This document shows, piece after piece, positions 224 to 13,286 of a stretch of 19,800 nucleotides of DNA (positions are counted from its first letter, which is position 1; each line of letters opens with the position of its first letter). The notes under the pieces were generated by a model. That model was given only the letters and a program-made list of their open reading frames with translations, had not been told where the DNA came from and did no database searches. The stretch is from a virus (Duplodnaviria > Heunggongvirae > Uroviricota > Caudoviricetes). Location of the stretch: positions 1 through 19,800 of the IMG/VR virus record IMGVR_UViG_2609459834_000013, one strand, 5' to 3'. Position numbers and translations under genes: made by a program.

Positions 224-946
224 TCAGCGAGTCAACTTGGGAAGAAATGACCTGCTTATTCGCACCTTCCCAAGATACACATGCCGATAAAGCTCGTGAT
301 TAGCCTTCTTCATAATCTCCATATCCCTGCGGAGAGTTTCCGGGAACCATGGATTAGCTGTGTAGTTGATCTGCTTGACGATGCAGTAGCGATTACCGTT
401 TTCGTCATAGTCGGGGTATATGCGATTCGTAACAAAGCGCTGATGTGTATCGCTGAGTCTGTTCTTCGGGTTGTATGCAACCCATATTTCCGACTCAACC
501 ACTCGACCATACTCAGCGCTGTAGAACTCTTTACGTACCGTTGGGATAAGCGTTTCCCATGAGTCCTTTGATACGTTTTCTGCTTCCTCTACAAGGGCGG
601 CATCGAAGTTTGCGTAACCTTTGATATTTTCCACGTTAAGGCGCAGGAAGTCGAAACTGATACGTCCGCCGCTATTGGCAAATATCTCTGTCTTATTGAT
701 AGTCACCAGTGAGTGGAGGTTTCGGCGGTTAATCTCTTCAACAATTTCCGCATAGCATGATTCCTTGATGGACTTCATGTACTCACGAAAACAGATAAGC
801 TTCCATCCGTGATAGATGACGTTATTGAGGAGGATTGTTATGAACGTTCGCGTCTTGGCGGAACCTCGCCCGCCATAAGCTACCTTGAATCTGGCTGGCT
901 GCAGGTATTCCTCAAACGCTTCAGGAATGCTGCATTGCTCTGTCAT
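224..946 (-). pseudogene. phage terminase large subunit, apparently 3'-truncated (ATPase domain only, 240 aa)
   Basis: ORF track 224..946; N-terminal Walker A-like motif GGRGSAKT typical of terminase large subunit ATPases; start overlaps terS stop (ATGA). Stop at 224 and no continuing minus-strand frame; terminase large subunits are normally over 400 aa with a C-terminal nuclease domain. Confidence 0.6.
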
Positions 947-1386
947 TGCGTCTCGCTTTTTACAATGTTATACACTGGAGCTTTTGGAGTCATGGAGCCG
1001 TCATCAGATGTATGGTTGACGTCCTGCTTCTCTCGCCATTTATCTTTCTGTCTGTTCTTGAGCCAGAAGATGGCGGCAGTTGTATCAGGCGGGTAATACT
1101 TCTTAAGCGGAGTTTCGACAATTCTGTTTTCAATAACACGAATATCGATGTCTGGAGCCACGAAGCCCATAGCGCGTTGATAAAGACGATCACTAACTTC
1201 TGCATCAGCGACGGCCTTACCCTTTTTTATGGACTCTAAAAACTCCGGATATTCCAATTTCCAATTGTTGATTGTTGCCTCGCTAACTTCAAAGAAGTCA
1301 GCGAGTTCGGCGTCTGTATAGCCCAGCAAGCACAGTTTGCGTGCCTGTTCGGCATACGCCTCTTGATACTTTGTTGGGCGCGCCAT
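943..1386 (-). CDS. phage terminase small subunit (HTH-type)
   Basis: ORF track 147 aa; N-terminal HTH-like region (…YTDAELADFFEVSEATINNWK…) and position immediately upstream of the large subunit with overlapping stop/start. Confidence 0.7.
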   Translation of the reverse strand: MARPTKYQEAYAEQARKLCLLGYTDAELADFFEVSEATINNWKLEYPEFLESIKKGKAVADAEVSDRLYQRAMGFVAPDIDIRVIENRIVETPLKKYYPPDTTAAIFWLKNRQKDKWREKQDVNHTSDDGSMTPKAPVYNIVKSETQ

Positions 1387-1388
1387 GT

Positions 1389-1631
1389 TTATGCTCCGGT
1401 GGTGAACAGGTCTAACGCTTCCTTCGATTTACGCACCGCTTCGATAGTGCGGGTCGTGATATCCGAATTAGCGCCGCCTGACTGGAAGTGAATTTTGAAT
1501 AGCTCAAGCTTCAGCTCGTCAGTGCCAATGAACTGAAATGCTTCTTCTGCGGCTGCGTTCTGGTTCATGACCAGTTTGTAAATCTCTAACTGGAATTTCT
1601 GTTCTTCAGTCATGGGAATAATCTCTGCCAT
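1389..1631 (-). CDS. hypothetical protein (80 aa)
   Basis: ORF track; ATG start preceded by ACGGAG Shine-Dalgarno; ends 2 bp before terS start. Confidence 0.5.
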   Translation of the reverse strand: MAEIIPMTEEQKFQLEIYKLVMNQNAAAEEAFQFIGTDELKLELFKIHFQSGGANSDITTRTIEAVRKSKEALDLFTTGA

Positions 1632-1927
1632 TGTTGGCTCCGTTTATCCGTTAAAAGGGATATCAGTTAAGTTATCCCGTGTAGGGTATAAGCCATTGTC
1701 GAGACCACTCATTGAATGGTCTCTGCAATAACCGATGTCTTTCCATCAGTCCGCCACCACAAAGAATCTTTTTTTGCCATAAGGCAGGAGGTTCATCTTT
1801 CAGTGGCTGCCAGTGTTATTTCCCCACTTACTGGCTTGGGTTGTTTCGTGGTACTGCCGTTAACTGGTGGCCCAGAATAAATTCCGGTTTCATTATCAAG
1901 CCCACCCGTAAATGGGCTTTGTAATGG

Positions 1928-2185
1928 CTACTTCGCTTTTGCTTCCGCTCGCTTACGCCGGCGCTCTTCTTTCCTCTCGGCTTTTGCCATGTCCATGAAT
2001 GCCTGCATGATCGAGTTCCGCATCATGTAGCTAACAAAGTGATGATTGACACAGCCGTTGAGGCGCAGCTGCTCGCCAAACTCATCCACCGAGGCCAATG
2101 CTTCCATCATGCCATTCTCGCCTTTCATGAACTCTGAGAAGTCACGTCCCGCTCTGGAGGCGCATTCAATGACACGATCACTCAT
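1928..2185 (-). CDS. hypothetical protein (85 aa) with highly basic C-terminal tail (ERKEERRRKRAEAKAK)
   Basis: ORF track; start overlaps stop of the KilA-N gene (ATGA coupling). Confidence 0.5.
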   Translation of the reverse strand: MSDRVIECASRAGRDFSEFMKGENGMMEALASVDEFGEQLRLNGCVNHHFVSYMMRNSIMQAFMDMAKAERKEERRRKRAEAKAK

Positions 2186-2679
2186 CCCGGAAGCCCGGGG
2201 ATCGTAATCTGCAGCTGGTTAGCCAGGGAGTTAATCTCAGCGACCAACACTGGCTTCGTATAGCGCCATGCTGCCAGCCCTTGTCCGCAGAAGCTCGCCA
2301 TGTCTTTCTTCTGGTCAAACTCATGACATTTCATGTTGAGCTGCGCACTTAAGCTGTTGCGATGCTGAAGTTCTCCGGTGAAGTAGTCATCGAGGACTTT
2401 ATAGGCCGCGTACTTGAACCCGGGGTTTAACCAAGCCGCATAATCGTAAGCAACAAACTTCCCGCCATATGTTCCACCGTGTACACCGCGCTCAGTAAAA
2501 ACCACAGATTCGTGGTTTTTCTCCAGCTCGGCTAAGAACTCTTTGGTCTGCTTGTTTCGCAGGTAGTGGTAAGGCGATTCAGATTCACTTTTACCACTGG
2601 CTTTCCACATATCAGTGAGGCAGATCATGCCATCTTCACCGATACGAATTGGTTGATTGAAGAGGGTTAATGATTTCAT
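2182..2679 (-). CDS. KilA-N domain protein (165 aa)
   Basis: ORF track; N-terminal region (…IRIGEDGMICLTDMWKASGK…YLRNKQTKEFL…) matches the KilA-N/APSES-type DNA-binding domain as I recall it from phage Ant/Bro proteins. Confidence 0.6.
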   Translation of the reverse strand: MKSLTLFNQPIRIGEDGMICLTDMWKASGKSESESPYHYLRNKQTKEFLAELEKNHESVVFTERGVHGGTYGGKFVAYDYAAWLNPGFKYAAYKVLDDYFTGELQHRNSLSAQLNMKCHEFDQKKDMASFCGQGLAAWRYTKPVLVAEINSLANQLQITIPGLPG

Positions 2680-2794
2680 AGCGTGTACCTACTCTTTGAA
2701 ATGAACCTTTGCCGCACAGGAAACCAGCCCACCGAGGCTCGCCAGCACTAACTGGTATCCTCAAAGGCCCATTCCAAAGGGGCAGGTTCGGTGT

Positions 2795-2820
2795 AAAAAA
2801 CATGCGTTGCGGTACGCATT
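2795..2820 (-). terminator. intrinsic terminator candidate (second of two after Rz)
   Basis: Minus-strand RNA AUGCGU-ACCGCA-ACGCAU followed by GUUUUUU; 6-bp stem. Coordinates approximate. Confidence 0.45.
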
Positions 2821-2821
2821 T

Positions 2822-2848
2822 ATTGCAAAAAGCCCCGCATCGCGAGGC
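2822..2848 (-). terminator. intrinsic terminator candidate directly downstream of Rz
   Basis: Minus-strand RNA AGCCUCGC-GAU-GCGGGGCU (7-8 bp stem with one G-U pair) followed by UUUUUGCAAU. Coordinates approximate. Confidence 0.5.
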
Positions 2849-2880
2849 TCATTAAATGGACTTTGTGATTTGCAAAAAAA

Positions 2881-3318
2881 TTATTTCAGGCATTGCGTCC
2901 TGATGTACTCCTGCAGGTAGTTAACCTGCGCGGTTATCCTGTCGATTCCACTTCGGAGACGGTAATAATTGAGTTCAGCATCTGCTGTAAGTCTTGGGCT
3001 TTCTCCATCGCCCATGCTGCTGGCTCCGGTCTTTGACTTTGCACAGGAGGCGGCGACTTGCAGCCGCTTACGCCCAGCAGAAACATCATCACGGAGACTT
3101 TCGATAGTCGCGTTAGCATCAGCAAGCTCCTTTGTATATCTGGCATCGAGTTCTGCTACGTCACGTTGACGCTTCTGCATGTCAGCGATGATGGATGTGG
3201 CTTTGTCGCGCTGCTCTTTGTAGGCGATGGCGTTATCACGGTAATGATTAACAGCCCATGACAGGCAGACGATGATGCAGATAACCAGAGCGGAGATAAT
3301 CGCGGTTACTCTGCTCAT
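2881..3318 (-). CDS. Rz: Rz i-spanin (145 aa)
   Basis: ORF track; N-terminal signal-anchor [31 protein letters not shown] matches lambda Rz as I recall it, then diverges; start overlaps R stop. Confidence 0.85.
2934..3119 (-). CDS. Rz1: Rz1 o-spanin lipoprotein embedded in the +1 frame of Rz
   Basis: Track ORF 2934..3146 contains [20 protein letters not shown] with lipobox and a proline-rich mature region ([16 protein letters not shown]). Start chosen at the internal Met (3119); a start at 3089 is also possible. Confidence 0.7.
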
Positions 3319-3791
3319 ACCTCAATATCTCTGACCGTTCCGCCAGCCTCTTTGAATTTTGCAATCAGGTTGTCAGCCTTATGCTCGAACTGGCCATAGC
3401 CAGCGCCCGGCAGTGAAGCCCAGATATTGCTGCAACGGTCGATTGCCTGACGAATATCACCGCGGTCAATCATCGGTAAAGCGCCACGCTCTTTAATCTG
3501 TTGCAATGCCACAGCGTCCTGGCTTTTCGGAGAGAAGTCTTTCAGGCCAAGCTGCTTACGATAGGCATCCCACCAACGGGAAAGAAGCTGATAGCGCCCG
3601 GCGGCTGTTGATTTGAGTTTGGGGTTTAGCGTGACAAGTTTGCGAGGGTGATCGGAGTAATCAGTGAATAGCTCTCCACCTACAATGACGTCATAACCAT
3701 GATTTCTGGTTTTCTGCCGTCCGTTATCAGTTCCCTCTGACCACGCCAGCATATCGAGGAACGCCTTACGTTGATTATTGATTTCCACCAT
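3315..3791 (-). CDS. R: endolysin R (lytic transglycosylase), 158 aa
   Basis: ORF track; sequence [39 protein letters not shown]… recognised as near-identical to lambda R. Confidence 0.95.
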
Positions 3792-4098
3792 CTTCTACTC
3801 CGGCTTTTTTAGCAGCGAAGCGTTTGATAAGCGAACCAATCGAGTCAGTACCGATGTAGCCGATGAACACGCTCGTTATATAAGCGAGATTGCTACTTAG
3901 TCCGGCGAAGTCGAGAAGGTCACGAATGAACCAGGCGATAATGGCGCACATCGTTGCGTCGATTACTGTTTTTGTAAACGCACCGCCATTATATCTGCCG
4001 CGAAGGTACGCCATTGCAAACGCAAGGATTGCCCCGATGCCTTGTTCCTTTGCCGCGAGAATGGCGGCTAACAGGTCATGTTTTTCTGGCATCTTCAT
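3775..4098 (-). CDS. S: holin S (S107/S105 dual-start), 107 aa
   Basis: ORF track; [43 protein letters not shown]… recognised as lambda S including the MKM dual-start motif. Confidence 0.95.
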
Positions 4099-4531: not shown

Positions 4532-5155
4532 CTAACGTGTGACCGCATTCAAAATGTTGTCTGCGATTGACTCTTCTTTGTGGCATTGCACCACCAGAGC
4601 GTCATACAGCGGCTTAACGGTGCGTGACCAGGTGGGTTGGGTAAGGTTTGGGATTAGCATCGTCACAGCGCGATATGCGGCGCTTGCTGGCATCCTTGAA
4701 TAGCCGACGCCTTTGCATCTTCCGCACTCTTTCTCGACAACTCTCCCCCACTGCTCTGTTTTTGCTATATCAACCGCACGGCCTGTACCGTGGCAATCTC
4801 TGCATCTTGCGCCCGGCGTCGCGGCACTACGGCAATAATCCGCATAAGCGAATGTTGCGAGCACTTGCAGTACCTTTGCCTTAGTATTTCCTTCGAGCTT
4901 TGCCACACCACGGTATTTCCCCGATACCTTGTGTGCAAATTGCATCAGATAGTTGATAGCCTTTTGTTTGTCGTTCTGGCTGAGTTCGTGCTTACCACAG
5001 AATGCAGCCATTCCGAATCCGGCTTGTGATTGCGCCATCCCCATAGCAGCCATCACATCAGTACCGGAAAGAGAGTCAGAAGCCGTAGCCCGTGGTGAGT
5101 CGCTCATCATCGGGCTTTTTGGCGAATGAAATTTAGCTACGCTTTCGAGTCTCAT
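4532..5155 (-). CDS. Q: late antiterminator Q (207 aa)
   Basis: ORF track; [34 protein letters not shown]… and the Cys-rich zinc-binding region recognised as lambda Q; start overlaps ninI stop. Confidence 0.95.

Positions 5156-11933: not shown

Positions 11934-13286
<1,353 letters not shown>

Follow-up and report, generated by a model that had tools for sequence, protein, structure and literature searches.

The window analyzed here, a stretch of 19,800 nt from a lambdoid phage genome (IMG/VR record IMGVR_UViG_2609459834_000013), carries on its minus strand a small cassette of two overlapping genes, located in the late region between the lysis gene Rz and the small terminase gene (terS). The first gene encodes a KilA-N domain protein of 165 amino acids and the second a partner of 85 amino acids, and both follow a structured RNA leader. 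An earlier note on this DNA had described three genes at this position, and all three open reading frames (ORFs) are present (Table 1). Homology searches, which the note had proposed, identify them as orthologues of hkbK, hkbL, and hkbM of phage HK620 (NC_002730), with 96.9% nucleotide identity and the order kept. In HK620, hkbK is annotated as a KilA-N domain protein, hkbL as hypothetical, and hkbM as DUF2560; part of the stretch is common to 248 phage records. The genes have been on record since HK620 was sequenced, and they occupy the known rha slot.

Table 1. Features of the late region of the window, listed in the direction of transcription
Feature	Position	Strand	Basis or remark
Q	5155..4532	minus	
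Holin S	4098..3775	minus	
Endolysin R	3791..3315	minus	
Rz, with Rz1 embedded	3318..2881	minus	
Non-coding gap from Rz to the KilA-N gene, 201 nt	2880..2680	minus	
Terminator T1, first hairpin past Rz, AGCCTCGC-GAT-GCGGGGCT, then T's	2849..2827	minus	Read from sequence
Second hairpin P0 (T2), ATGCGT-ACCGCA-ACGCAT, then GTTTTTT	2819..2795	minus	Terminator scan
Alternative (pseudoknot) helix, CACCGA with apical loop UCGGUG	2793..2788 with 2735..2730	minus	
Leader hairpin P1–P5, long and irregular	2787..2687	minus	Minimum free energy −48.7 kcal/mol, z = −3.0
KilA-N + ORF11CD3 ORF, 165 aa (HK620 HkbK orthologue)	2679..2182	minus	Pfam, PHROG 129, HK620 annotation
Small hairpin CCCGG-GCUU-CCGGG, abutting the hkbL start codon	2186..2199	minus	Read from sequence
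HkbL ORF, 85 aa	2185..1928	minus	ATGA overlap with the KilA-N stop at 2185..2182
Non-coding gap from hkbL to the DUF2560 gene, 296 nt	1927..1632	minus	
Hairpin AAGCCCAUU-UACG-GGUGGGCUU, just past the hkbL stop, no T-run	1919..1898	minus	Kept in HK620, PhiR49_1, Stx2-1717, Dewey
Structured non-coding element, ~230 nt, ending in GGGAUA..UAUCCC+UUUU at 1678..1653	1870..1640	minus	
DUF2560 ORF, 80 aa (HK620 HkbM, P22 Orf80)	1631..1389	minus	Pfam
Small terminase subunit gene	1386..943	minus	PHROG 309, E = 7e-65; start 2 nt past the DUF2560 stop
Large terminase gene, broken at ~270	946..	minus	

The two-gene cassette and its boundaries

The assignment of the 165-aa protein (HkbK) to the KilA-N family, made earlier from the sequence, holds: residues 9–101 match the Pfam KilA-N domain (PF04383) with 57.6 bits against a cut-off of 23.8. 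Residues 109–161 form an ORF11CD3 domain (PF10549; 50.5 bits, cut-off 25). KilA-N with a C-terminal ORF11CD3 is a combination of domains from the Bro network, whose domain list is set out in PMC10111431, and HkbK is a member of that network. Natural chimeras (P0133) that join a pRha N terminus to an ORF11CD3-type C terminus are consistent with a network that evolves by domain shuffling. Pfam found neither the Phage_pRha domain (PF09669) of the Rha family nor the P22_AR_N, P22_AR_C, or ANT domains of P22 Ant-type antirepressors in HkbK, and BLASTP against Rha from the equivalent slot gave no detectable similarity (E = 0.68). The AlphaFold2 model (predicted local distance difference test score (pLDDT) 82) consists of an α/β N-terminal domain followed by a long antiparallel helical hairpin at residues 86–156. 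A Foldseek search with this model returned weak matches only, including the APSES-like N-domain of Bqt4 at E = 0.24, which is not significant; fold searches for HkbK and HkbL gave nothing specific, and neither sequence searches against solved structures nor an NCBIfam search gave a match. In diverged phages of Pantoea, Cronobacter, Salmonella, and Erwinia, too, KilA-N + ORF11CD3 genes follow the lysis genes.

The 85-aa partner, HkbL, matches no Pfam family. Its C terminus, KAERKEERRRKRAEAKAK, is as strongly basic as the earlier note had stated. The AlphaFold2 model (pLDDT 89) is a three-helix protein, and an alignment of the family shows invariant Cys-8, Cys-45, and His-49, a near-invariant His-48, and a basic C-terminal helix. 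The family is very narrow, with 137 clusters at 90% identity, all from Enterobacterales, and an exhaustive profile search of 1.84 billion proteins yielded only 21 representatives. PADLOC gave an insignificant QatB match and no other for HkbL.

The overlap of the two genes, which had been read as translational coupling, is present in the window as an ATGA motif. In all 94 hkbL loci a gene lies immediately upstream on the same strand, with a 4-nt overlap in 85 of them, a 2-nt gap in 7, and a gap of 45–51 nt in 2. The upstream partners that we examined are Bro-network proteins of three architectures with no domain common to all: KilA-N + ORF11CD3 as in the window, KilA-N + P63C in Klebsiella, Scandinavium, Raoultella, and Trabulsiella (the Klebsiella copy lies within a tail gene cluster), and pRha + ANT in the immI region of a Rouxiella prophage. 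This constant placement of HkbL behind Bro-network genes appears to be new. The small hairpin next to the hkbL start codon is consistent with a second cistron that would be translated through coupling only. Small ORFs 3′ of diverged KilA-N genes were considered as HkbL relatives and set aside; those of Pantoea and Cronobacter are unrelated, and the Salmonella ORF is a recombined HkbL fragment of 16 residues.

The third gene encodes a DUF2560 protein (PF10834; 147.7 bits, E = 1.1e-43). The earlier note had counted it with the pair as a three-gene block, a grouping that comparison with other phages does not bear out. The pair is found with three unrelated packaging modules, namely before lambda-type Nu1/A terminase genes in PhiR49_1, before HNH and terS genes in the Stx2 phages 1717 and 2851, and before DUF2560 and terS genes in HK620 and the window. 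Among 91 fetched loci that carry hkbL, the gene is followed by DUF2560, together with P22-type packaging genes, in 22, by Nu1 and/or a ybcV-like gene in 32, by the 1717-type HNH gene in 9, and by no recognized reference gene in 28. The DUF2560 gene, in turn, also stands behind Rha where Rha occurs alone, both in other P22-like prophages (L005 among them) and in P22 (Orf80). Because the pair has varied downstream genes and DUF2560 follows lone Rha as well, the comparison indicates that the mobile unit is the two-gene cassette, and that the DUF2560 gene is separate and belongs with the P22-type packaging genes. In the window, a structured gap divides it from the pair, and 2 nt from terS. The module boundaries are corrected in this respect. 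The statement that the interval between Rz and the terminase genes is variable proved right, since a lone Rha-family gene occupies the slot in other P22-like prophages.

The leader and its genomic setting

The leader extends over ∼150 nt from the T1 side to the start of the KilA-N gene, and the ∼110 nt 5′ of the start codon fold as a long hairpin. At the base of this hairpin, ACCUGC (2787..2782) pairs with GUAGGU (2692..2687), the Shine-Dalgarno (SD) region of the KilA-N gene. The helix runs without a break for 22 base pairs in the window's version, and other variants have interruptions in it. Three of four diverged variants have a stable fold with a sequestered SD (z from −2.2 to −3.0), and the fourth is ambiguous (z = −0.4). 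The leaders of HK620 and phiEt88 also bury the SD, with different sequences providing the pairing.

The leader exists in several diverged versions, with 33 distinct variants in 81 loci in addition to versions from other genera, and these differences follow the predicted structure. An RNAalifold consensus of 14 sequences contains 27 pairs, 19 of which are changed on both sides, as opposed to 7.7 in shuffled alignments; none of 500 shuffles reached the observed count. In the alignment, 92% of the cells are paired, compared with 34–55% when the partners are slid. A covariance model built from the upper helices only has a single match in the window (2677–2790, minus strand, 94.7 bits) and, in the fetched loci, one match 5′ of almost every Bro-network gene, with scores of 49–110 bits on the sense strand against at most 24 bits on the antisense strand. 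For 30 distinct sequences, the full structure, including the basal helices absent from the covariance model, gives a covariation score of 0.466, compared with 0.22 for shuffles and at most 0.16 for slid controls. The frequency of G–U pairs assigns the structure to the sense strand. Both the fold and its covariation are shown computationally. A protein-coding origin of the conservation was rejected, because the substitutions compensate each other and the frame 5′ of the ATG, open in some relatives, is closed in the window. Across the whole window, Rfam 15 gave no match at gathering thresholds, and at E ≤ 10 only marginal matches to STnc470 (18 bits against a gathering threshold of 80), rimP, isrJ, and DUF805b, mostly over the terminators; none of the Rfam families, C4 and IsrK among them, matches the leader.

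Besides the hairpin, the leader can form an alternative, pseudoknot-type helix between a strand at its 5′ end and the apical loop. This helix is contiguous and at least 6 bp long in all 28 distinct leaders and is realized by at least nine different sequences, e.g. CCCGAG/CUCGGG, CACAGAA/UUCUGUG, and CCAAGAG/CUCUUGG (CGTCGA/TCGACG in RothD); mismatched cross-combinations of the strands average 4.85. Because the 5′ strand of the pseudoknot abuts the anti-SD strand, the pseudoknot helix and the basal hairpin helix are probably mutually exclusive. By approximate energies, the hairpin state is favored over the pseudoknot state by ∼5–10 kcal/mol in four variants. Therefore, the translatable state would need to be transient or stabilized by a factor.

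When three sequence versions of the leader were compared with 50,697 phage records by BLAST, they matched 75, 146, and 305 enterobacterial phage records, with overlap among the three sets kept in. The window's version lies directly 5′ of P22 rha (orf201; 95% identity) and of ES18 gp79. The second version lies directly 5′ of the rha genes of phi80 and HK639 and is also found in CUS-3, Sf101, and epsilon34. The third lies directly 5′ of ST64B sb54, of ST104 orf45, and of genes that carry the annotation ant in BP-4795, Stx1 phages, and 75/02 Stx. The leader is thus shared, and a covarying leader common to rha, ant, and kilA cassettes appears to be new; we found no publication that describes it in a literature search that did not reach the primary rha papers.

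A Salmonella Kottbus contig contains four leader copies within ∼3.3 kb around the lysis genes (1–62, 1634–1748, 2392–2503, and 3144–3256 in coordinates of the fetched locus, as for all other phages below), each before a different Bro-network gene, and one of them cuts hkbL after 16 codons. By this arrangement, the post-lysis region is a hotspot at which leader and Bro-gene cassettes would accumulate. Directly behind the leader, Dewey (2099–2650) and RothD (1265–1804) carry HNH homing endonuclease genes, and Dewey has a second copy of the last ∼40 nt of the leader, placed between its HNH and KilA-N genes. These arrangements suggest that the leader has been captured by homing endonucleases or serves them as a landing site. 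The annotated rha starts of P22 (1546) and phi80 (1568) fall inside the leader hairpin; the ATG that aligns with the KilA-N and ES18 gp79 starts is located 69 nt (1615) and 36 nt (1604) further downstream, respectively. The annotated Rha proteins of P22 and phi80 are probably too long.

The leader is preceded by two tandem hairpins past Rz, both of which the earlier note had recognized as terminators. T1, missed by the terminator scan for being short by one T, has a homologue that the annotations of phi80 and ES18 list as a (putative) terminator, is kept in nearly all leader variants, and forms the conserved 5′ boundary of the cassette. P0 is kept as GCGC-loop-GCGC in all leader variants and has a T-run in the window's variant only. 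On the coding strand, a consensus scan of positions 1300–3000 found no sigma-70-like promoter, also in the interval where promoter mapping had been proposed, and no −10/−35 hexamers are conserved across the leader variants. An own upstream promoter, as expected of a moron, is therefore absent by consensus scan, which is weak evidence. Downstream of the pair are a hairpin that lacks a T-run and a weak hairpin followed by four T's (1678..1653). In BP-4795 and 75/02 Stx, the equivalent leader and ant cassette is located between R and Rz, inside the lysis cassette; therefore, late transcription must cross it in these phages. It occupies 1499–2324 in BP-4795, where a 48-aa ORF overlaps the ant stop, and 1498–2180 in 75/02 Stx. 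From the layout of the locus, we infer that the cassette is Q-dependent and transcribed in the late operon behind T1 and T2.

The gap between hkbL and the DUF2560 gene is itself strongly structured (−100 kcal/mol, z = −5.8 on the sense strand; z = −4.4 antisense). It contains the ∼230-nt element, which is 90–98% identical in 200 phage records, stands downstream of either Rha or KilA-N/HkbL genes, has no Rfam match, and appears to be new as a conserved structured 3′ element. P22 orf25 falls within this element. In the window, a run of seven A's at 1775–1769 (six in P22, HK620, and L005) shifts the frame and leaves an ORF of 16 aa (another position noted is 1794–1796), and orf25 is probably no real gene. 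A segment of ∼195 nt (window 1895–1700), flanked by the short direct repeats CTTGATAATG and CTCGACAATG, is present in the window, HK620, and Dewey and absent from PhiR49_1 and Stx2-1717, consistent with a deletion or insertion by recombination between short repeats.

Otherwise, the window is an ordinary P22/HK620-like lambdoid prophage, with genes for ERF, CI (S24 peptidase domain; 12253–12885), a Cro-like protein, CII, O, a DnaB-type helicase, NinG, a phosphatase, and Q. Positions 1–270 belong to an IS5-like element of the ISKpn26 family, whose inverted repeat ends at 270. The element interrupts the large terminase (Terminase_3) gene at 224–946 and leaves 240 codons. Because of this truncation, the prophage is probably defective for packaging.

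Proposed role of the cassette

We consider it probable that the cassette is a late-operon Bro-network unit, the KilA-N counterpart of the rha genes of P22 and phi80, which encodes a late-expressed, translationally gated DNA-binding regulator. Its anatomy, from 5′ to 3′, is shown computationally: T1, the structured leader, the KilA-N + ORF11CD3 gene, the coupled hkbL, and the structured 3′ non-coding region. Apparently having no promoter of its own, the cassette would be transcribed only when RNA polymerase modified by Q passes from pR′ through T1 and T2 toward the packaging genes, and the two hairpins would insulate it from transcription that is not antiterminated. The anatomy thus predicts expression solely as Q-dependent read-through, an outcome that the earlier note had named as contrary to its own reading.

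On the late transcript, the leader hairpin would bury the SD and keep translation off by default, as the fold and its covariation predict. Pairing of the pseudoknot would probably produce the less stable, translatable conformer, which would form during transcription or be stabilized by a factor. HkbL would be made together with HkbK by coupling, as suggested by the ATGA overlap and the junction hairpin. The KilA-N domain, which by its family assignment has an APSES-like DNA-binding fold, would bind DNA, and the ORF11CD3 hairpin would mediate oligomerization or contact a partner. Because HkbK shares slot and leader with Rha, it may act in the manner of Rha from outside that family. By analogy with Rha and Ant-type proteins, the pair would regulate or inhibit replication or repression at a late stage of lytic growth.

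Several points weigh against this proposal. The mutual exclusion of the pseudoknot and basal helices is deduced from geometry, and the energies of the pseudoknot are approximations. The absence of a promoter is weakly supported by the consensus scan and by the lack of conserved hexamers. The KilA-N + ORF11CD3 genes of the Pantoea, Cronobacter, and Erwinia phages stand without HkbL, and HkbL may be an independent effector that is merely under the regulation of the cassette. The long helix of 22 contiguous base pairs could be an RNase III processing site instead. Finally, the cassette may be idle in this prophage because the large terminase gene is cut by the IS5-like element.

A more specific version, which we put forward tentatively, is that the leader represents an undescribed class of phage cis-regulatory RNA, a two-state gate, perhaps responsive to a factor, on the translation of potentially harmful Bro-network regulators (rha, ant, kilA, and others) within late operons, and that HkbL is a dedicated, possibly zinc-binding cofactor of Bro-network proteins. 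If this is true, the response of the leader to a host or phage factor could underlie the harm done by rha only in IHF-deficient hosts.

Slightly more doubtful still is that the leader is no switch at all and serves either as an element for RNase III processing or RNA stability or as a conserved linker for the recombinational exchange of Bro-gene cassettes. The uninterrupted helix of the window's variant and the hairpin's advantage of 5–10 kcal/mol over the alternative conformer speak for this reading, and the unrelated genes behind the leader, homing endonucleases included, fit a recombination joint. However, the helix is interrupted in other variants, and compensatory changes keep the SD/anti-SD and pseudoknot helices in many diverged versions, which a pure DNA linker would not need.

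That HkbK is an antirepressor, inactivating CI-type repressors of its own phage or of co-resident prophages in late growth and thus locking the lytic decision or cross-inducing neighbors, seems unlikely to us. It belongs to the same Bro network as P22 Ant and the Ant of Stx phages, and the leader precedes genes annotated ant in Stx phages. The nin-region Ant of Phi24B raises pR′ activity after induction (PMC3064807); this is a different gene in another slot, and we set the study aside as direct evidence. HkbK, however, has none of the domains of P22-type antirepressors, its KilA-N domain is a DNA-binding fold by family assignment, and late expression would come after the repressor has been inactivated.

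Less credible again is a toxin and neutralizer pair, in which HkbK would be toxic like KilA of P1 and the coupled HkbL would temper or target it. KilA of P1 is lethal, and Rha is toxic in IHF-deficient hosts, as annotation notes also record; the coupling is strict in 92 of 94 loci, and HkbL is not found without an upstream Bro-network gene. Against such a pair, the partners of HkbL have no common domain, many KilA-N + ORF11CD3 genes lack HkbL, and Rha stands in the equivalent slot without a partner.

The least probable reading is the inserted moron or defense gene that the earlier note had considered, a KilA-N protein made in the lysogen from its own promoter to protect the host, e.g. by BstA-like abortive infection: the KilA-N domain, the different content of the slot between phages, and the sole PADLOC match of HkbK (the candidate PDC-S22, weak and at the domain level, E = 1.2e-8, best stretch of 31 residues at 60–90) speak for it, but the coding strand has no promoter-like site, two terminators lie upstream, the SD is sequestered, the late-operon position is conserved across genera, the leader also serves rha and ant genes, and the 165 residues with an ORF11CD3 tail differ from BstA in length and C-terminal domain.

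A translationally gated late regulator would matter beyond this prophage. Few unexplained genes of temperate phages, Shiga toxin phages included, are as common as those of the Bro network (rha, ant, kilA, and roi). The comparison groups the KilA-N gene with rha and ant in a proposed regulatory family, whose members would have three elements in common, namely a terminator, a covarying leader in which the ribosome-binding site is hidden, and a competing helix. This idea is testable and may explain how toxic functions are restricted to the late lytic phase and why the effect of rha depends on host IHF.

Comparison with known systems

The closest relative is HK620, which has the same gene order in the same position between Rz and the small terminase gene. 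It differs in an additional small gene, hkbN, a gap that is 57 nt longer, and another version of the leader. The HK620 genes are annotated as unknown or hypothetical, and the match supplies names rather than functions.

The rha genes of P22 (orf201), phi80, and ES18 (gp79) share with the cassette the late-operon slot after Rz, the terminator and structured leader, and a product from the Bro network. In P22-like rha loci, the conserved 3′ non-coding element and the DUF2560 gene follow as well. In contrast to HkbK, their products have a Phage_pRha domain instead of KilA-N, and there is no coupled hkbL. According to annotation notes, phi80 rha inhibits DNA synthesis in IHF-deficient hosts, and ES18 gp79 affects growth in such hosts.

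KilA of P1, the founding member of its family, also begins with a KilA-N domain. It is encoded in the C1-controlled kilA-repL operon of the lytic replicon and has a different C-terminal region, whereas the window's gene is located in the late operon and carries an ORF11CD3 tail. An N-terminal KilA-N domain is likewise found in BstA, the abortive-infection protein of the Salmonella prophage BTP1. BstA has ∼300 amino acids, is encoded next to the repressor, is expressed in the lysogen, and has an internal anti-BstA DNA element. HkbK, in contrast, has 165 amino acids, lies behind terminators in the late operon, and matches only PDC-S22 in PADLOC.

Antirepressor genes controlled by RNA include ant of P1 with c4 RNA and anrP of Gifsy-1 with IsrK. 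In the immI region of P22, ant is silenced by sar RNA (cited in PMC2629481). These systems and the cassette have in common a potentially harmful Bro-network or antirepressor gene that is, in the cassette by prediction, silenced translationally by RNA pairing near the ribosome-binding site. However, sar, c4, and IsrK are trans-acting or antisense RNAs with promoters of their own, whereas the window is predicted to use an intramolecular leader fold with a pseudoknot-type alternative.

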